Below, one piece after another: positions 16,223 to 23,966 of a stretch of 64,000 nucleotides of DNA (positions are counted from its first letter, which is position 1; each line of letters opens with the position of its first letter). Source of the DNA: Candidatus Hydrogenedentota bacterium (GTDB taxonomy: Bacteria; Hydrogenedentota; Hydrogenedentia; Hydrogenedentales; JAGMZX01); NCBI GenBank assembly GCA_029556545.1, contig JAKQEQ010000193.1:15262-79261 (forward strand), written 5' to 3'. Below the pieces are notes generated by a model. The model searched no databases and had not been told where the DNA came from. It worked only from the letters and a program-made list of their open reading frames with translations. The translations under genes and the position numbers were made by a program.

Positions 16223-18553
16223 ATGTGGGCCGCGGTTGGTTGGAAACGACGGCTGATACCGTGGGCGGTGTGTGTCGTTTGTCTTTCGTCGCTCACGGCG
16301 GCGGGCGCGGACACCGCCGCGCCGTGTGTGGCGAATGCATGGCTGCGGGTCTGCTTGGACGCCGCGGACGGGCGGCTCGTGAGTTTCACGGACCTCGCGG
16401 TCGACCACGAGTTTCTGGGCACGGCCGAGAACGCGGACCTCTGGTGGATGGACCTGCTGCCGCCGGGCACGCCGCCGATTACGCCCCGCGACGCGAAGCG
16501 GTTCGCGTGGCGCGCGGGCGCCGCGGCGAACACCCTCGAACTCGAATGGGACGCCTTCGCGGTCGCCGCCGCGCCGGAACTCCGCGTTCGCGCGTCGGTG
16601 CGCGTCGAGCAGGACGCGCCCGCGAGTCATTGGCGCATCGCCGTCGAAGGTGCGGACGCGCTGCAAGTGGCGGCGATTCGGTTTCCCCGCATTGCCGCCG
16701 TCGCGCCTCAGCAGGACGAAACGCTCACCGTGCCCATCTGGATGGGCCAGCGGACGGAACGCGCGCGCGAAATGCTGTCGAGCGGCGGGTCGGCGCACAG
16801 ACTCGAATGGGAGTATCCCGGTATCCTGTCCCTGCAATGCTTGGCCCTGTACGGTCCCGACGGGCCGGGACTCTACCTCGCCTGCGACGACACCCGGCGG
16901 GCGCGCAAGACCTTCGCCGTTTTCGGCGATGGACAGGGCGGCCTCGGCATGGAGATTTCGCACGCGCCGGGAGCGGGCGGCGCGTCGGCGGAATACGCGC
17001 TGCCCTACGCGGTCGAGCTGGCAATTATCGAAGGCGACTGGTTCGCGGCGGCGGCGCGGTATCGCGACGGCGAGCCGAGCGCCTTGTTCGGGCAGGCGTC
17101 GAGGCGCGTGAACGGCGCGGTTCCCGAATGGCTGTTGCGGACCGGCGCATGGGTCTGGAACCGCGGGCGCTCCGAGAACGTGCTCGATCCCGCGCGGGTC
17201 CTGCTAGAACGTCTCGGTATGCCGGTGAGCGTGTTCTGGCATTGGTGGCACGGCTGCCCCTACGACGTGGGCTTCCCCGAGTATCTCCCGCCGCGCGAGG
17301 GCGCGGAACCGTTCCGCGCGGCGGTCGCCGCGATGCACGACGCGGACCTGCGCGCCATCGTGTACATGAACCAGCGGCTTTGGGGCATGGCCACGGCAAG
17401 CTGGCGCGACAAGGCGGCCGAGCGCTTCGCCGTAAAAGGGCCGGACGGCGCGGTCCATCCCGAGGTGTACAACACGTTCACGCGGTCGCCGTGCGCGTCC
17501 ATGTGCATGGGCACCGCGTTCTGGCGGGACAAATACGCGGGCATCGCGGAAGAAGTCCTGTGCGATTACCGCCTCGACGGCATCTACATGGACCAGGCGT
17601 GTTCGAGCCTCGCGTGTTTCGACCCGGCGCACGGCCACCTGCTCGGCGGAGGCACGTACTGGATGGAGGGATTCCAGGCGCTCGTGGGAGATATCCGTCG
17701 CCGCGCGGCGTCATGCGGCAATAGCAGTGACCCTCACCCCAATCCGCTCCCGCGGGGATCGGGCATCGTGCTCGCGGGCGAGGGCTGCGGCGAGGCGTGG
17801 CTGCCGCACCTCGATCTGATGCTCAGCCTGCAAGTGAGCATGGAACGCTACGCAGCGCCGGGCGACTGGGAACCGATCCCCTTCTTCCACGCCGTCTACC
17901 ACGACAAAGCCGTGCTCTACGGCAACTATTCCTCGCTCACGACGCCTCCCTACGATGAGTTGTGGCCCGCCGAGACCGCGCCGAAGGAACCCCTGGCGCT
18001 GCTCGACCGCAAGTATGCGCGGCAGTTTTTCCTCGAACAGGCCCGCGCGTTCGTATGGGGCCAGCAGCCCACGATAGCGAACTTCCGGCCCGGCCACTTC
18101 GATGATCGGGCCGAGGAAATGGCGTACTTCGCGCGCCTGGCCCAGGCGCGCATGAGGGCCTTGCCCTGGCTGCGCGACGGCGTCATGCTGCGACCGCCGC
18201 GACTCGACGTTCCCGAAATCGTCTTCGATGCGTCGCGCCTCTCGATCTACGCCGGTCAAGGCGAGGCGGTGAAGGAATTCTCGATGCGTCATCCCGCGGC
18301 CCTTGCCGCGGCGTGGCAAGCCCCGCGCGACGGAAGCGTGGCGGTCGCCCTCGCGAGCATTTCCGCCGACCCGCTCGACGTCGAACTGCGCTTGCACGGC
18401 CCCGCCTATCCCCTCCCGCGCGCGGGCACGGTTCTCCGCGTCGACGAAACGGGCCAGCAGCCCGTGGGGCGGTTCGAAGACGGTGCGGCGGTGATCACGG
18501 CGCGACTGAAAGCACTGGACGTGTGTGTGTACGTTCTTGTCGGCGACTCATGA
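16223..18553 (+). CDS. secreted hypothetical protein (776 aa), possibly carbohydrate-active
   Basis: Internal ATG 16223 gives a signal peptide MWAAVGWKRRLIPWAVCVVCLSSLTAAGA. The long frame is open and aromatic-rich, with no recognisable motif. Confidence 0.65.
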   Translation: MWAAVGWKRRLIPWAVCVVCLSSLTAAGADTAAPCVANAWLRVCLDAADGRLVSFTDLAVDHEFLGTAENADLWWMDLLPPGTPPITPRDAKRFAWRAGAAANTLELEWDAFAVAAAPELRVRASVRVEQDAPASHWRIAVEGADALQVAAIRFPRIAAVAPQQDETLTVPIWMGQRTERAREMLSSGGSAHRLEWEYPGILSLQCLALYGPDGPGLYLACDDTRRARKTFAVFGDGQGGLGMEISHAPGAGGASAEYALPYAVELAIIEGDWFAAAARYRDGEPSALFGQASRRVNGAVPEWLLRTGAWVWNRGRSENVLDPARVLLERLGMPVSVFWHWWHGCPYDVGFPEYLPPREGAEPFRAAVAAMHDADLRAIVYMNQRLWGMATASWRDKAAERFAVKGPDGAVHPEVYNTFTRSPCASMCMGTAFWRDKYAGIAEEVLCDYRLDGIYMDQACSSLACFDPAHGHLLGGGTYWMEGFQALVGDIRRRAASCGNSSDPHPNPLPRGSGIVLAGEGCGEAWLPHLDLMLSLQVSMERYAAPGDWEPIPFFHAVYHDKAVLYGNYSSLTTPPYDELWPAETAPKEPLALLDRKYARQFFLEQARAFVWGQQPTIANFRPGHFDDRAEEMAYFARLAQARMRALPWLRDGVMLRPPRLDVPEIVFDASRLSIYAGQGEAVKEFSMRHPAALAAAWQAPRDGSVAVALASISADPLDVELRLHGPAYPLPRAGTVLRVDETGQQPVGRFEDGAAVITARLKALDVCVYVLVGDS

Positions 18554-20080
18554 CGCATCCGACCGGTCGCCGCGCGAGTCCTCATCGAGAAACGACGTGT
18601 CCGCCGGCGGTTCGCCACCGCGACGACCGAATCGCGCGAACACGAGCCCGAATGCGCCGACGATGAAGAGCGCCATGCCGAGCAGTTTCGCTGGGCTGCC
18701 CAACGTGCGTTCCGCGCGCAACACGACGGCATCGGCGGCGGCGAGGTCCGGCCGAATCGCAAATATCCAGTCGCCCTGGCGACGCCGCTCGCCGGGGCCG
18801 ATCGTGAACGTCTTCTCGTCTCCGCCGTCAATCGGGACCGCGCGCAAGGTGCACCGCACCTCGGGCGGCGTCGGCTCGCGGCGGTACGCCAGCATGACAT
18901 CGCCGTGCCGCATGTTTTCGCCTTGTCGAAGCGCGAGCGTCTCGCCCGCACTTTCGAGCAGGGCCTCGAAGACCGGTTGCTCCGTCTCCGGGACAGGCAG
19001 CGCCGCGCCCATGAGTTGGTCCAACCGGATTTCGTAAGGGAATTCGTCCGGACGCCACGCCTCCCGATCCTTGATCTCGCCGGTGAAGCGTTTCGCGGCG
19101 GCAGGCTGCGCCTTCGGCAATTCGTAAGCGGCGACAAGCGCGTGACCCTCGCGCCACGCATCCGCCGCGACCACGTGTTGCCACGCGGCGGGCCACTCGA
19201 AACGGAGGCGGCTTTCCGGGTCACGCGCGTTGGCGTCGAGCGTTTCCCTCTGTTGCTTGCCGTCCGCGGCGAATTCCACCGTAATACGCGGCGGTTCCGA
19301 CTTAAATTCAACGAGCGTCGCCTCCGTCCCGTCGCGCAGGACGTGGCCGGTCCCCGGAACAAACGAAGTCGACCAGTGCACGATGGTTGTGGCCGGTCGC
19401 CCGACCGCGCCGTTATCCACCACGCCCCAACGTCCCTCGAACAGGGATTCCGGCGATGCGGCGTGCGCCGCCCGCGCGGCCTCCTCGTCCGTGTGCCAGC
19501 GCAACCGAAGACCGATGCCCGGCGCCACGCGCAGCCAGTTCTCGGCATCCACGAAGAGATGCTCCGTCCAAGGCTCGCCTCGTCGCCGCAACGAGAACGC
19601 CGCCATCGGCTGTCCCTTCGGGTGTCGGACCAATCCACTCCAGCGCCGCAGCGTGACGCGGTACGCCTGGTCGTCAAAGGTGATCGTGGCGCCGTCATGG
19701 AGCGGGATTTCGCGCCGGTCCTCCGCCGCCCGCACGCGCAACACGTCGCGCGGCGGATACTCCCGCAGCACGTCCGCCTCTTCGAGGCGCAGACGGAACG
19801 GAAGGGTCATCGCGTCGTAGGCAAGGTCCGGGTCGAGCAGTCGTCGCGCGATGGCCGGGTTGTCGAACGCGATCACGTCGAGGGGCGCGCGCCGCTGCAT
19901 GCCGACAAAGACCTGCCCGGCCCGACTAGGGCGCACCACGCTCTTCTCGGTGCGGCCCAAGGCCAGCGGCAGTTCGCCGGAGAAGGCGGCCAACCGCTGG
20001 TAGACCAGGCCGCCCAAAGCGAAGACCGCGCCAAGATAAAAGAGCGCGAAAAACAGTCGCGGCGACGATGAGCGTTGCAT
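18548..20080 (-). CDS. hypothetical membrane protein with N- and C-terminal TM anchors and a large extracytoplasmic domain
   Basis: Internal ATG at 20080 (MQRSSSPRLFFALFYLGAVFALGGLVY) gives an N-terminal TM helix. There is a C-terminal TM LLGMALFIVGAFGLVFARF. The upstream 232 codons of track ORF 18548..20776 are rejected as an arginine-rich GC artefact. Confidence 0.55.
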   Translation of the reverse strand: MQRSSSPRLFFALFYLGAVFALGGLVYQRLAAFSGELPLALGRTEKSVVRPSRAGQVFVGMQRRAPLDVIAFDNPAIARRLLDPDLAYDAMTLPFRLRLEEADVLREYPPRDVLRVRAAEDRREIPLHDGATITFDDQAYRVTLRRWSGLVRHPKGQPMAAFSLRRRGEPWTEHLFVDAENWLRVAPGIGLRLRWHTDEEAARAAHAASPESLFEGRWGVVDNGAVGRPATTIVHWSTSFVPGTGHVLRDGTEATLVEFKSEPPRITVEFAADGKQQRETLDANARDPESRLRFEWPAAWQHVVAADAWREGHALVAAYELPKAQPAAAKRFTGEIKDREAWRPDEFPYEIRLDQLMGAALPVPETEQPVFEALLESAGETLALRQGENMRHGDVMLAYRREPTPPEVRCTLRAVPIDGGDEKTFTIGPGERRRQGDWIFAIRPDLAAADAVVLRAERTLGSPAKLLGMALFIVGAFGLVFARFGRRGGEPPADTSFLDEDSRGDRSDAS

Positions 20081-20326
20081 GGCTTCGAGTATGGCACGGC
20101 CCGCGCCGGGGATGCCAGAGTATCGTCGGCTTTGACGGGTATACGCCGGAAGCGGACCGGTTCTCAGCGTTCGGTATCCAAGGCTCCTCCCAAGACGGCC
20201 ACGCCTTTTCTTGCGCATCATGATCATAAGTCGTTTGTGTCCCTTCGGCTCCTTGCGTCCCTGAGCGGTCTTCTCGCGCGCAATTGGTGGACACGCCCGC
20301 GGACCTTGTGTGAGAATGATTCCCTT

Positions 20327-20965
20327 ATGTCTGAACGACAGCAACGTATCCGCCGTTCGCGGCGAACCGGCCTCAGCGGGGTGCTGCAACTCGCGAACGA
20401 ACTCGATTCCGAGCCGGAACACGCGCGCCACGTGCGCACGCTGGCGCGGCTGCTCTTCGACCAGACGAAATCGCTGCACGGCCTTGGCCGCCGCGAACGC
20501 CGCGTCCTCGAAGCAGGGGCACTCCTGCATGACACCGGGTTGCGCCGCGGCGTGAACCGCCACCACAAGCATTCCCGCGACATCATCCTCGACTTGGAAC
20601 TCCCCGGCTTCTCCGAAGAGGAGAAGGCCGTGATCGCCTGTCTTGCGCGATACCACCGCAAGGCCCCGCCCCGCCCGGATCATCGCGTCTTCCGCGACCT
20701 CGCGCCCGAGACGCAGCGAACCGTCCGCGTGCTCGCGGCGATCCTGCGAATCGCCGACGGGCTGGACCGGGCGCATCTGGCGGCGTCACGCGGGCTGCGC
20801 GTGGCCTTGAACGGAACCGACTGCCGCATCGCGGTGGACCAGTCTGCCGAAAGTCAGACCGACCTGTGGGGCGCGATGCGTAAGCGGGACCTCTTCGAGG
20901 AAGTCTTCGGTGTTCGGGTCGAAATAGCGCCCGCCGACATGGCCGCCGCGAGGCCCGAAGGATAA
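20327..20965 (+). CDS. stand-alone HD-domain protein of the Ppx/GppA C-terminal type
   Basis: 212 aa from internal ATG 20327. HARHV...LLFD...LEAGALLHDTG...HHKHSRDIIL...GFSEEEKAVIACLARYHRK matches the HD-like C-terminal domain of exopolyphosphatase/GppA. The ASKHA N-domain is absent. Confidence 0.7.
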   Translation: MSERQQRIRRSRRTGLSGVLQLANELDSEPEHARHVRTLARLLFDQTKSLHGLGRRERRVLEAGALLHDTGLRRGVNRHHKHSRDIILDLELPGFSEEEKAVIACLARYHRKAPPRPDHRVFRDLAPETQRTVRVLAAILRIADGLDRAHLAASRGLRVALNGTDCRIAVDQSAESQTDLWGAMRKRDLFEEVFGVRVEIAPADMAAARPEG

Positions 20966-21871: not shown

Positions 21872-22312
21872 CTAGCCCTCAAGACGCCGCCGCGCTTCCC
21901 GCGCGCCGAGGCCGCGAATTGCGTAGAGCGCCTTCTTGGTATTCGAACGCAACCGTAACCGGCCCCCCTTCCGTTCCCATTGGTAGATGGATTGCGCGCT
22001 CACGCCGACGAGTTTCGCGAAGTCGGCCTGCGTCAGCCGCAGCCGATCACGCAGCGTGCGAATGGTCGTACTGCTGATTCGCAGCCGATCCGCCTTGTCC
22101 TCCGACGCGACGGCCTCTTGCTCCTTCAGCCCCGCCGTCGCGCGCGCAAGCCGCCGATTCTCCGTCTCGAGCTTCGCTACGCGGCGTTTCAAGGACGCGA
22201 GCGTGCGCCTCATCTCCGCTTGAAACTTGTGCGCTTTTCCCGTGCCGTCCTTCACCTCTTTTCGCGCAAGACGACGCACTTCCTCTTTGAACGCGGAAAC
22301 GAAATTGGGCAT
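21872..22312 (-). CDS. XRE-family HTH transcriptional regulator with N-terminal coiled coil
   Basis: RLTQADFAKLVGVSAQSIYQWERK is a Cro/C1-type HTH. A strong RBS aaggagag lies 7 nt before ATG 22312. Confidence 0.8.
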   Translation of the reverse strand: MPNFVSAFKEEVRRLARKEVKDGTGKAHKFQAEMRRTLASLKRRVAKLETENRRLARATAGLKEQEAVASEDKADRLRISSTTIRTLRDRLRLTQADFAKLVGVSAQSIYQWERKGGRLRLRSNTKKALYAIRGLGAREARRRLEG

Positions 22313-22379
22313 CGTAACTCTCCTTCGCGGTTAGCAACCCGATCTTGTCACGAGAAAACCGAATGAATCGCCTGTTAGT

Positions 22380-22985
22380 ATGTCATTTCCGCCGCGATCT
22401 TGTCAACCGTAATGATTATAGCATCGCTTAGATTAGGGTGCTGTTCCGCAATTACCGCTGGATTGCCGGATTCTTGGCGGAGTCGCGGTTGAATCGTGGC
22501 CTATGTTGCGGATAGCGCGGACGACGTGCCTCATGTCGCGGATACCGCGGACGACTTGTTAGCGCGCTTTAGCGCGCTCCTCTTTGCACCCTGCTTTAGC
22601 AGGGGTGTAGGGGAATTGCCTTTCCCGCCGATAGGGCGCTTCAGCGTCGCTTTCCGGATGGCTTCAGCGCTGAAGCACTTGAAAAGCCGCGCTGAAGCGG
22701 GCTTTGGCGCAGGAGAGCCCTCGTCTCACCCCGCATGAATGCGGGTGCAAAGAGGAGCCCGCCGAGGCGCGCTAATCAGCCCCTGAGACGCCGCAGTCGG
22801 TAATCGCGGAACCGCACCCTTAGATTATCGGCGACGGCGGCAAGGCAATCTCGAATCTGTGTCTTATTCTTAACGCGGCGGCGCATCCAGCGAAGCATGA
22901 CGAGAGAGCATTCGTGGTCGGCTAAGCCGCCGCACATTACGTCTCCAGGCGCATAGCGCATACTTCTTCCTCGTTTGTACGAATT
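22380..22985. other. non-coding island of lower GC, rich in short GC-stem hairpins and short direct repeats
   Basis: No credible ORF is present. Hairpins: gcgcgc-ttta-gcgcgc, ccctgc-ttta-gcaggg, gcttcagcgctgaagc (perfect palindrome), cccgcat-ga-atgcggg. Direct repeats: gcggata[g/c]cgcggacgac x2 and cgatcttgtca x2. Confidence 0.5.
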
Positions 22986-22987
22986 GG

Positions 22988-23073
22988 CCTGGATTCCCGC
23001 TTTCGCGGGAATGACGCCGGGGGCGAATTTGGCCCTCTTTTCCGTCATTCCCGCGAAAGCGGGAATCCAGAAA
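22988..23073. repeat. perfect 28-bp inverted repeat with a 30-bp spacer; each arm contains the nested palindrome ATTCCCGC-N-GCGGGAAT
   Basis: Left arm ctggattcccgctttcgcgggaatgacg (22988-23015) equals the reverse complement of cgtcattcccgcgaaagcgggaatccag (23046-23073). It sits about 80 bp downstream of the stop of the minus-strand gene 23154..23966. Confidence 0.8.
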
Positions 23074-23153
23074 GGTACAGATAGTGCCCTTAACCGAACA
23101 CGAATGGACGAGAGAGTGAAAAGTGACCCTCACGCGCACGCGGAGTGACACGA

Positions 23154-23966
23154 TCAGGGCGGCGTGGCCAAGCGCAGCATGCCCATGCGCGTCAATGCGA
23201 AATCATAACGAACCGGGTCTTCCGGACAGACGCGGCGAAAGCCCGCGGTCGCCTCGATAGCAGCCCGCGCGTCCGCGGTCTTTCGCGTCGTAAGGCCCAA
23301 CTTGAGACAAATTCGATGCATGTGCGTGTCGAGCGGTATGACGAGCTTCGCGGGGTCGAGACCCGTCCAGGTTCCCGGGTCCACCGCGTCGCGGCGCACC
23401 ATCCAGCGAAGATAAAGCCAGAGCCGCTTGCACGCGCTGCCGCGCGCCGGTTCCGGTAGAAGATAGTTCATCACCGGCGGCGATTCCGCGCGCAGTTCAT
23501 CCACGAAGCGCGTGAGCGCGGCAAGATAATCGGCGTCCCCTTCCCGTATGCACGCACGAAAGCAGGCGTGAAGCGATCCCCGCGTGAGCAGTACCCGCCG
23601 TGCACCCGTCAACAGGTCCGCGAGTTCGCGCTCCCGCGCGAAACGGTGCTGGAAACCGCGGCACAACCTCCTGATCGCCGTTGGTTCCGCGGCGCGCAAG
23701 TCCGCGGCCGGCCGTGGCAGGCGCGCGATCGCGGCGTCCACACTGCGCAAGATCGTCTTCACATTCCCGAACGCCAGCGACGCCGCGATCAGCCCGACCA
23801 GTTCCTGGTCCGCCGGGTCCGAGAAACGCAACACCGCCGCCAGGGGATCGGTGTGCACGTACTCGGCGCGCGTGTACTCCCGATAGATCCGTTCGAGGGC
23901 CGCCCGCCGGACAGGCGCCGCGTTCCTCGCGAGGGTCTCGGGACGGTGGAAGCGTTCGCGCATCAC
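23154..23966 (-). CDS. conserved hypothetical protein (TIGR02757/DUF2400-like)
   Basis: 270 aa coding-like frame. The C-terminal RYDFALTRMG and overall pattern resemble the TIGR02757 family. This assignment comes from memory of the family, not from a search. Confidence 0.6.
   Translation of the reverse strand: MMRERFHRPETLARNAAPVRRAALERIYREYTRAEYVHTDPLAAVLRFSDPADQELVGLIAASLAFGNVKTILRSVDAAIARLPRPAADLRAAEPTAIRRLCRGFQHRFARERELADLLTGARRVLLTRGSLHACFRACIREGDADYLAALTRFVDELRAESPPVMNYLLPEPARGSACKRLWLYLRWMVRRDAVDPGTWTGLDPAKLVIPLDTHMHRICLKLGLTTRKTADARAAIEATAGFRRVCPEDPVRYDFALTRMGMLRLATPP

Follow-up and report, generated by a model that had tools for sequence, protein, structure and literature searches.

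A hairpin-rich spacer in a Candidatus Hydrogenedentes genome probably holds two separate MITE-like insertions, one of which encloses a dRS3-type REP doublet

Introduction

MITEs are short non-autonomous elements that are mobilised in trans by DDE transposases. Bacterial examples such as the Correia elements of Neisseria, ERIC/IRU and Nezha are small and non-coding, have imperfect terminal inverted repeats with perfect flanking duplications, and can fold into long hairpins. REP units of the CGTC-1 family, which is pan-bacterial and explicitly includes dRS3 of Neisseria as well as RPE-6 of Rickettsia, are defined by an unpaired terminal CGTC tag, an 8-bp stem with A and T at its first two positions, and a 4-nt loop (Di Nocera, De Gregorio & Rocco 2013, PMC3733652). 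They are organised as homodimers, and REPs are often found downstream of ORFs and between co-oriented genes, and some affect mRNA stability (PMC3733652). Di Nocera et al. found neither a transposase gene flanked by CGTC repeats nor a dedicated transposase (PMC3733652). In Neisseria a CGTC-1-like unit forms REPINs, that is, pairs of inverted REP units, separated by less than 130 bp, that fold into one hairpin, which the authors associated with a Group 2 RAYT (bioRxiv 10.1101/2021.07.10.451892).

Here we analyse a stretch of 64,000 nucleotides (the window) from a Candidatus Hydrogenedentes MAG, in which an intergenic island dense in hairpins lies upstream of an XRE-family gene. We consider it probable that this island is not a single unit but two separate non-coding mobile-element insertions, MITE-like in character, in an otherwise ordinary promoter spacer. 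We call them element A and element C. Both share with the bacterial MITEs their small size, lack of coding content, imperfect terminal repeats, perfect duplications and capacity to fold into long hairpins, and A is in addition multi-copy, intergenic and found in A/T-rich targets. Unlike those elements, neither A nor C resembles any annotated sequence in the plasmid and phage records, and no parent insertion sequence was identified for them.

The doublet inside C, in turn, resembles the described REP systems. It has the tag, the AT-starting stem, the 4-nt loop and the homodimer organisation of CGTC-1, and it is likewise extragenic, downstream of an ORF and between genes of the same direction. 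It differs in that its host belongs to Hydrogenedentota, outside the five phyla given for CGTC repeats in the Results of the defining paper, and in that its tags point inward (TT), an arrangement called rare for these repeats (PMC3733652). It also occurs at very low density, one doublet in about 99 kb, and lies inside an element bounded by terminal inverted repeats and a target-site duplication. Compared with the Neisseria REPIN-RAYT system, the unit ATTCCCGCGAAAGCGGGAATC departs from the meningococcal master 21-mer ATTCCCGCGCAGGCGGGAATC in its loop alone, the two inverted units again lie less than 130 bp apart and form one long hairpin, and the best full-length matches are from Neisseria; here, in contrast, no REPIN population is evident in the sampled DNA and a flanking duplication is present (bioRxiv 10.1101/2021.07.10.451892).

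Results

The spacer spans 22313-23153, between an XRE/HTH_3 gene (21872-22312, minus strand) and a DUF2400/TIGR02757 gene (23154-23966, minus strand). The initial annotation had placed the island between the start of the former and the stop of the latter; both genes and their boundaries were confirmed, but the spacer measures 842 bp rather than 770 bp. The hairpins, direct repeats and 28-bp inverted repeat quoted in that annotation are all present, displaced by at most 1-2 nt. Its view that there is no credible ORF also held, since the four ORFs of the spacer had no Pfam or NCBIfam hits. The lower GC content that it described applies to the spacer as a whole (57.3% vs 64.7% for the window, a level as low as this being found in 3.6% of 841-bp windows) but not to the hairpin block: the original spacer sequence has 45-54% GC and element C 55.6%, whereas element A, which contains that block, has 62.5%, near the level of the genome.

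All 64 kb were scanned for terminal inverted repeats matching at 15 or more of 18 positions and abutted by perfect direct repeats of at least 8 bp. Elements A and C were the sole structures returned, and 20 local shuffles returned none. Elsewhere in the 64-kb window there is no further copy of A, of C or of the REP unit. In silico excision of both elements leaves a spacer of 241 bp; at the orthologous XRE-CHAD-Ppx/HD locus of three relatives the spacers measure 204, 288 and 678 bp and contain no A, C or REP units. Among the explanations first offered for the island, that of a REP/MITE-like cluster is thus borne out by two bounded elements, by copies of A at other loci and by a dispersed REP unit. 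Two pairs of terminal inverted repeats with target duplications, and the division of the listed features between two elements, had been overlooked.

Element A (22436-22819) is 384 bp long and non-coding. It is flanked by an 8-bp target-site duplication, TTAGATTA, at 22428-22435 on the left and 22820-22827 on the right, and CTTAGATTA occurs exactly twice in the 64 kb, each time abutting an end of A. The left terminal inverted repeat (22436-22457, plus strand) reads GGGTGCTGTTCCGCAATTACCG; the right one (22798-22819, minus strand), read as the reverse complement GGGTGCGGTTCCGCGATTACCG, matches it at 20 of 22 positions. Between them lies an imperfect palindrome of 217 bp (22559-22775) with 49-nt arms that are 78% complementary and with further hairpins nested inside. 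This interior is the source of the apparent run of GC-stem hairpins, all four of which fall within A: gcgcgc-ttta-gcgcgc (22562-22577), ccctgc-ttta-gcaggg (22589-22604), gcttcagcgctgaagc (22661-22676) and cccgcat-ga-atgcggg (22730-22745). The gcggata[g/c]cgcggacgac pair (22508-22525 and 22538-22555) belongs to a 30-bp tandem duplication (22495-22554) that is present in the window copy only, the other three copies having a single unit. Nested long-range inverted repeats at 22435-22457/22798-22820 and 22559-22607/22727-22775 had also escaped the initial annotation.

In its terminal repeats, abutting duplication, small size without coding capacity and dispersed copies, A resembles a MITE. An 80-aa ORF within it matched no protein family in Pfam or NCBIfam and shared words with no protein, and the copies of A are separated by frameshift. 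Several DDE families produce 8-bp duplications and have GG...CTGTT-type ends; we make no family assignment for A on this basis.

Element A is a repeat family with copies at no fewer than four loci, in this Candidatus Hydrogenedentes genome or in a sibling MAG. Searching by the terminal-repeat pattern recovered copies in the metagenome contigs L016, L013 (identical to L012) and L010, which have unrelated flanks and whose flanking proteins match the HNT/HNR Candidatus Hydrogenedentes MAG series of the window. These copies are 77-82% identical over 177-314 bp, and in every one the similarity begins exactly at GGGTGC. The sequence to the left is an A/T-rich 8-mer in all four copies, in a genome of about 65% GC, which suggests a preference of A for A/T-rich targets. 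The assembly also behaves as it would at a repeat, with three independent short contigs that end 35-45 bp within A. Only the window copy is complete: the other three are one-ended remnants that retain the left end, and neither a right terminal repeat nor a duplication was detected for them. The family may therefore be an old one in decay and not an active one.

No autonomous partner or transposase with the terminal repeats of A was found in the genome contigs, metagenome contigs, viral contigs, plasmids or phages at the sensitivity of these searches, and A itself had no match in the viral contigs, plasmids or phages. Some isolated matches were set aside. Single 22-mer matches to the terminal repeat in Streptomyces and Geobacter genomes are attributed to chance, BLAST having extended nothing past the 22-mer in a collection that lacked the source species. 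The 22-mer matches in L009, L011 and L014 were likewise judged to be chance, since they fall within ordinary genes, one of cytochrome-b type and one for an electron-transfer flavoprotein; an apparent partner repeat of about 6,970 bp in L009 and L011 was rejected.

A different reading of these copies is that A is a structured non-coding RNA gene, or a cis-regulatory RNA, in paralogous copies, with the terminal repeats as its closing helix. The predicted fold is indeed very stable (z-scores of -7.7 and -9.1 on the two strands for 22420-22840), several hairpins are invariant across the four copies, and in our own reading of the flanks a -10-like hexamer lies just before GGGTGC in three of the four. 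However, A folds equally well on both strands, as a DNA palindrome would, and no Rfam family matches it. Compensatory changes were found in 0 of 60 predicted pairs, with a covariation term of -0.25 kcal/mol, although four sequences give this comparison low power. The other copies stop at different internal points, so that the putative closing helices are left without their 3' half. An RNA gene would have no use for an 8-bp flanking duplication, and A is missing at the orthologous loci of relatives. The whole window had no Rfam hits at gathering thresholds, and at E<=10 the island gave weak sub-threshold matches only, mostly of microRNA-precursor hairpin models to the REP doublet. We therefore regard an RNA gene, which the initial annotation had listed as a candidate, as very improbable, and treat A as a MITE-like insertion.

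The bases between A and the XRE gene belong to the original spacer (22313-22435, minus strand, 45.5% GC), as judged by promoter scan and alignment to relatives. The scan predicts a sigma-70-like promoter on the minus strand, with TTGACA at 22406-22401, an 18-nt spacer and CATACT at 22382-22377. A conserved upstream block, AATCTAAGCrAyGCTATAA...GTTGACA...GATACT, begins at AATCTAA and aligns with the relatives L017 and L018 with a score of 44 (shuffle mean 17.4, shuffle maximum 27). The relatives, whose XRE proteins are 65-68% identical, carry one AATCTAA and no element A. Conservation with them starts at the A junction and does not cross it, so the argument for an empty site depends on the single versus duplicated AATCTAA and not on a continuous alignment. 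On the XRE strand, the predicted empty-site junctions are GTCGCCGATAATCTAAGCGATGC for the absence of A and TTTTCACTCTCTCGTCATGCTTCGC for the absence of C. No allele lacking A was found, and every contig that reaches the site carries it. A distance of 30 bp separates element A from the downstream -35 box of this conserved regulator gene.

The proximity of the island to the XRE promoter could also mean that the island was selected as a unit, as a regulatory array for the XRE repressor or as a bidirectional terminator or insulator. It lies immediately upstream of the promoter, the direct repeat pair TGACAAGATCG (cgatcttgtca; 22340-22350 and 22395-22405, minus strand) overlaps the -35 box with its upstream copy, and the position of the REP units, downstream of an ORF and between same-direction genes, is one in which REPs are often found (PMC3733652). 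Yet the orthologous XRE genes of relatives have kept the promoter block while hairpins, A, C and REP units are all absent, and copies of A elsewhere are not beside XRE genes. Nor are the large hairpins followed by a T-run on either strand. Terminator-like sites number 2 against 1.4 expected, which is chance level, and a terminator for the DUF2400 gene was not found in the hairpin after its stop codon, which is not significant (z = -1.1). Selection of the island as a unit is thus extremely unlikely. Of the proposals made initially, a bidirectional terminator is not shown, and an array of XRE sites formed by the hairpin block and the 28-bp repeat is not supported, the block and the repeat both being missing upstream of the XRE orthologues of relatives. 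The TGACAAGATCG pair by itself is still a plausible candidate operator pair for the XRE protein; its second copy is not kept in relatives.

The second of the two insertions, element C (22909-23106), is 198 bp long and encloses the perfect 28-bp inverted repeat. Its 18-bp terminal inverted repeats (22909-22926 and 23089-23106; CATTCGTGkTCGGyTAAG) match at 16 of 18 positions and are abutted by a perfect 10-bp target-site duplication, GACGAGAGAG, at 22899-22908 on the left and 23107-23116 on the right. This 10-mer occurs exactly twice in 64 kb, at the two ends of C, and the element has a folding z-score of -7.9. Element C therefore carries terminal repeats and an abutting duplication as MITEs do, but it is known from one copy, a second being absent from about 35 kb of other DNA of this organism and from the other loci retrieved. 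The parts of C outside the REP units had no match in viral contigs, and no transposase or autonomous element with its terminal repeats was found in the limited DNA searched. Four single viral-contig matches to a 16-base pattern of these repeats do not extend into C and were judged to be at chance level, given an approximate collection size.

An ORF of 61 codons (22776-22961, minus strand) that is annotated as a gene on JGI and ENA contigs runs from inside C into the right end of A, and for this reason we judge it to be a chimeric artefact. It has no homologue besides itself among 1.84 billion representatives and no family hit. We rejected the idea of a real gene disrupted by A, the ORF being an orphan and its restored forms of 64 aa and 93 aa having no database record.

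By sequence and predicted structure, each 28-bp arm in C is a CGTC-1 REP unit. Unit 1 (22989-23016, minus strand) and unit 2 (23043-23070, plus strand) both read CGTC, ATTCCCGC, GAAA, GCGGGAAT, CCAG, that is, an unpaired terminal CGTC tag and an 8-bp stem ATTCCCGC/GCGGGAAT, with A and T first, around the 4-nt loop GAAA. They form a tags-inward (TT) homodimer, a REPIN-form doublet, across a spacer of 26 nt (23017-23042) that has its own small hairpin GGGGGC...GCCCTC and is not conserved in the dimers of other genomes. The hairpin of the two arms has a predicted energy of -72 kcal/mol and a folding z-score of -11.0, and the 20-mer core of the arm occurs twice against 0.01 expected.

The initial annotation had noted a likeness to dRS3 of Neisseria in the ATTCCC-N8-GGGAAT core and had considered it probably convergence or coincidence. 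The likeness is correct in every sequence and structural feature of CGTC-1, and it extends to similarity with the Neisseria copies, which are the best full-length database matches; family membership thus replaces convergence. Records of N. gonorrhoeae match at 31-34 places each, the best being 78% identical across 96% of the doublet, and one gonococcal sequence contains the 22-mer exactly. An exact 24-mer is present in 109 viral or prophage contig stretches, in which 263 units at no more than 4 mismatches occur in HH, TT and HT arrangements. This 24-mer is also found in proteobacterial replicons, those of Neisseria, Photobacterium, Azospirillum and sphingomonads.

This identity raises an alternative for C: the doublet may have arrived as an ordinary REPIN through a RAYT (an IS200/IS605-like tyrosine transposase) encoded elsewhere in this genome, with the repeats around it unrelated to its arrival. 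The doublet fits the formal description of a REPIN, and TT dimers with spacers of 23-33 nt recur in other genomes. The near-identical unit ATTCCCGCGCAGGCGGGAATC forms REPINs in Neisseria that are associated with a Group 2 RAYT (bioRxiv 10.1101/2021.07.10.451892). Against this, at the density seen in N. meningitidis about 11 (10.8) REP units would be expected in the 98.8 kb available, a sample and not the whole genome, and 2 were seen (Poisson P(<=2) = 0.0014); no REPIN population of near-identical copies was seen in that sample. Within the 64-kb window no REP-flanked RAYT was found, all its REP units being those of the spacer doublet. The loci of relatives have no REP units, the 16/18 inverted repeat with an abutting perfect 10-bp duplication is absent from shuffles, and transposition of the RAYT/IS200 type is not known to make target duplications. 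For CGTC repeats in general, moreover, no flanked transposase gene was found (PMC3733652). We consider arrival as an ordinary REPIN improbable.

The further proposition, that C is a DDE-type MITE carrying the CGTC-1 REP dimer as cargo, is one that we put forward only tentatively and hold to be unlikely. Of the 263 units elsewhere, none belongs to a dimer bounded by terminal inverted repeats and a target duplication, so element C is not an example of a wider pattern.

Discussion

We propose that an AT-richer spacer of about 241 bp, containing the promoter of a conserved XRE-family gene, grew to 842 bp by two independent insertions. Element A would have entered at the upstream border of the conserved promoter block, with a duplication of 8 bp (TTAGATTA), and the insertion of element C, about 40 bp beyond the DUF2400 stop codon, would have duplicated 10 bp (GACGAGAGAG). 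Both were likely moved in trans by DDE-type transposases that make staggered cuts of 8 and 10 bp. The tags-inward homodimer of the CGTC-1 unit, which is the perfect 28-bp inverted repeat, may be either a passenger or the core of C. Incidentally, its hairpin may act as a stabiliser of RNA 3' ends, or as a barrier to read-through from the DUF2400 gene towards the XRE promoter. Element A, for its part, could affect XRE expression, given its position so close to the -35 box.

The island is ordinary genome litter, and a false lead is thereby removed: the hairpin cluster is neither a new RNA or riboregulator nor a regulatory device or operator array. What it adds is a MITE-like family described for Hydrogenedentota, a poorly studied candidate phylum. 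This family can break metagenome assemblies and yields spurious gene calls, of which the 61-aa chimeric ORF is an example.

The dRS3/CGTC-1 REP family is now recorded in Hydrogenedentota, beyond the five phyla of the paper that defined it (PMC3733652). The presence of a REP dimer within an element bounded by terminal repeats and a target duplication bears weakly on how CGTC repeats move. If the cargo reading of C were true, dRS3-type REP units could hitch-hike inside transposase-mobilised elements, which would give CGTC repeats one route by which to spread within and between distant phyla, and would explain why a near-identical unit is found as a lone doublet in Hydrogenedentota.

Two bounded elements in the XRE promoter spacer

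The low-GC island is a promoter spacer that two MITE-like elements have enlarged by inserting into it; one of them contains a REP dimer of the CGTC-1 (dRS3) type. The spacer (22313-23153, 842 bp) separates an HTH_3/XRE-type gene (21872-22312, minus strand) from a DUF2400/TIGR02757 gene (23154-23966, minus strand). As the initial annotation had proposed, it is poorer in GC than its surroundings (57.3% versus 64.7% for the window, a value within the bottom 3.6% for windows of this size) and holds no credible ORF, none of its ORFs matching Pfam or NCBIfam. The repeats described there are likewise present: four short GC-stem hairpins (22562-22745), a gcggata... repeat pair (22508-22555), a cgatcttgtca pair (22340-22350 and 22395-22405) and a perfect 28-bp inverted repeat with arms at 22989-23016 and 23043-23070. 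Fold stability relative to shuffled sequence is high for 22420-22840 (z = -7.7 and -9.1 on the two strands) and for the hairpin of the 28-bp arms (z = -11.0). A repeat finder also returned nested long-range inverted repeats, not noted before, which closer inspection shows to belong to two distinct elements, each with defined ends.

Element A (22436-22819, 384 bp) has 22-bp terminal inverted repeats (TIRs; GGGTGCkGTTCCGCrATTACCG, 20 of 22 positions matching), and TTAGATTA abuts both of its ends; the 9-mer CTTAGATTA occurs twice in 64 kb, precisely at these two flanks. Element C (22909-23106, 198 bp) has 18-bp TIRs (CATTCGTGkTCGGyTAAG, 16/18 matching) abutted at both ends by the perfect 10-bp GACGAGAGAG, which also has two occurrences in the window. 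When the whole window was scanned for inverted repeats of at least 15/18 that abut perfect direct repeats of 8-11 bp and bound elements of 80-2,500 bp, A and C were the sole results, and 20 locally shuffled windows yielded no such structure. A encloses all four hairpins together with the gcggata pair, and C encloses both 28-bp arms, leaving the cgatcttgtca pair as the only one of these features in the remaining spacer. Removing A and C in silico, each with one copy of its target-site duplication (TSD), leaves 241 bp of 52% GC, within the size range of the spacers of relatives. A 61-aa ORF called by the JGI and ENA gene callers (22776-22961, minus strand) starts within C and ends within A, and a homologue search returned only itself; we regard it as a chimeric artefact for these reasons.

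Element A is a dispersed family

In JGI metagenomes the TIR pattern of A was found at the window's own locus and seven others. The matches in L009, L011 and L014 fall within coding sequence and were set aside as chance. True homologues are present in the contigs L016, L013 (the same as L012) and L010, at 77-82% identity over 177-314 bp, with flanks otherwise unrelated to those of the window. In every copy the similarity has its start precisely at the TIR sequence GGGTGC, which fixes the left boundary of A independently. The left flanks of the four copies are all A/T-rich 8-mers (TTAGATTA, CTTGAAAA, CTACTATA and AAAACAAT). The three other copies part from the window copy at differing internal points, have neither right TIR nor TSD, and are one-ended remnants of A; they hold a single unit of a 30-bp sequence that is tandemly duplicated in the window (22495-22554). 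By exact look-ups, the CHAD protein of the window is HNT89529.1, and a single series of Candidatus Hydrogenedentes MAG accessions (HNT/HNR) accounts for the flanks of all four copies. The A family is thus multi-copy within a single organism or among very close strains. At the XRE locus, three independent short contigs (L004, L005 and L006; two Logan, one JGI) end 35-45 bp inside A, at window positions 22470-22480, which is consistent with repeat-induced assembly breaks.

The surroundings of two remnants are also of note. In L016 (4529-7531) the partial copy is found 64 bp downstream from a PIN(VapC)/AbrB-type toxin-antitoxin pair and is followed by a block, seemingly of lower GC by eye, whose products are a protein of 175 aa and the three-Cys-motif partner TcmP (HNT86252.1); this stretch looks like a small acquired island. 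In L010 (7614-9341) a 575-aa integrase-like ORF adjoins a GH43 gene, which abuts the partial copy.

A structured RNA gene, as the initial annotation had considered, is disfavored as an account of the spacer: there is no Rfam match, compensatory changes were seen in 0 of 60 pairs (from four sequences, hence at low power), folding is equal on both strands, the copies of A are truncated differently, and a flanking duplication is present. The earlier suggestion of a REP/MITE-like repeat fits instead, with two TIR- and TSD-bounded elements, dispersed copies of A and REP units in the arms.

The conserved XRE promoter block

The XRE protein family is spread through Hydrogenedentota and PVC-group bacteria. 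We compared the loci of three relatives, whose XRE proteins are 68%, 65% and 60% identical to that of the window. The two closer relatives retain the downstream gene order (CHAD, then Ppx/GppA-HD), the gene upstream of the XRE locus is different in all three, and the upstream spacers measure 288, 678 and 204 bp. None of these three orthologous loci contains A, C or the REP unit. Ahead of the XRE gene, a promoter block (AATCTAAGCrAyGCTATAA...TTGACA-18-(C/G)ATACT) is kept between the window (22313-22435) and the Hydrogenedentota relatives L017 (4881-5000) and L018 (3262-3380), with an alignment score of 44, where shuffles average 17.4 and reach at most 27. AATCTAA is single at the start of this block in the relatives, and in the window it is duplicated, with a copy at each side of A; the alignment stops at the junction of A, with no conservation across it. 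The single versus duplicated AATCTAA is good evidence for the insertion of A, in an alignment that does not cross the junction and is not a continuous empty-site alignment.

An array of XRE binding sites and a bidirectional terminator had also been listed as candidate explanations. Both an operator array and a unitary terminator are disfavored, as the block is missing from the relatives' XRE loci and copies of the A family adjoin unrelated genes. The large hairpins lack a T-run after them, and the number of terminator-like sites is that expected by chance. Insertion of A into an existing promoter spacer is the reading that we retain.

Other features of the locus deserve mention. Within the promoter block a perfect TATAAT precedes the -35 box, and in the relatives the block reads TTGACA-18-GATACT, followed by GATTCATT in the leader. 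The direct repeat TGACAAGATCG (minus strand, 22340-22350 and 22395-22405) places one copy over the XRE -35 box and the other in the 5' leader; the second copy is not kept in the relatives, and the pair is a plausible candidate for an autoregulatory operator pair of the XRE gene. The order XRE, CHAD, Ppx-GppA_III/HD is kept in the relatives (L017 5001-8572, where two thymidylate-kinase-like genes are inserted; L018 3381-5672), which suggests a functional link between the regulator and polyphosphate-related genes. Gene calls conflict nearby: a 742-aa ORF without Pfam match (18548-20776, minus strand; called in the ENA contig L001) overlaps by ~450 bp the opposite-strand Ppx-GppA_III/HD gene (20075-20965, plus strand; a 212-aa call in the JGI contig L002), and its N-terminal part is probably spurious.

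A CGTC-1 REP dimer within element C

Each 28-bp arm reads CGTC-ATTCCCGC-GAAA-GCGGGAAT-CCAG. CGTC-tagged REPs were defined by Di Nocera et al. (PMC3733652), who give family 1 a 4-nt loop and an 8-bp stem whose first bases are AT, and who equate the CGTC-1 elements of Neisseria with dRS3. The arms have all the sequence features of CGTC-1, and the meningococcal REPIN master sequence ATTCCCGCGCAGGCGGGAATC, associated with a Group 2 RAYT (Bertels & Rainey, bioRxiv 10.1101/2021.07.10.451892), differs from the window unit in the loop alone. The exact 24-mer of the unit occurs in 109 stretches of a viral/prophage contig collection, which holds 263 units at up to 4 mismatches; the GC content of the hosts ranges from 40 to 71%. 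In the plasmid collection the whole doublet is matched over nearly its full length only by N. gonorrhoeae records of chromosome size (78% identity, 31-34 places in each) and one Photobacterium replicon, with single-unit matches in Azospirillum, Novosphingobium, Sphingopyxis and Halioglobus. On these sequence features and matches, together with the Neisseria master, the arms are true members of the dRS3/CGTC-1 family. The likeness to dRS3 remarked on in the initial annotation is therefore real, and its reading as coincidence fails.

The tags of the doublet face inward, making it a TT homodimer, an arrangement called rare for CGTC repeats (PMC3733652); neighboring units in the viral/prophage set are 50 head-tail, 38 tags-outward and 16 tags-inward. 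Comparable TT dimers in other genomes have spacers unrelated to that of the window doublet, and as judged from these repeats the conserved entity is the ~30-nt unit, not the doublet. Some genomes have head-to-tail arrays with a regular ~77-bp period (viral-contig loci L047, L079, L072 and L089), and tags-outward dimers elsewhere in that set have a very tight spacer of ~54 nt, suggesting distinct composite repeat types built from one CGTC-1 unit.

It is possible that the doublet itself is part of an active REPIN-RAYT system. However, REP units are sparse in this organism (one doublet in ~99 kb, where the meningococcal density would predict ~11 units; P = 0.0014), and both this sparseness and the duplication that surrounds C fit such a system poorly. 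A REP dimer riding in a MITE is a single observation, since none of the 263 units in other genomes is enclosed by TIRs and a TSD.

Proposed origin and significance

We propose that DDE-type transposases inserted A and C in trans, making cuts staggered by 8 and 10 bp whose filling-in would have produced the TSDs, and that A may prefer A/T-rich targets. No parent transposase was found for A in genome, metagenome and viral contigs, plasmids or phages, or for C in viral contigs; C is known from a single copy, and no same-species allele without A or without C was found. The REP dimer could have arrived as cargo of C or by insertion into it. Its hairpin may stabilize RNA 3' ends or block read-through in the interval from the DUF2400 gene to the XRE promoter, and A may alter XRE expression because only 30 bp separate it from the -35 box downstream. 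The finding is genuine yet ordinary, comprising known kinds of element in a little-studied phylum; the one point that merits specialist attention is a REP dimer within a TIR- and TSD-bounded element.
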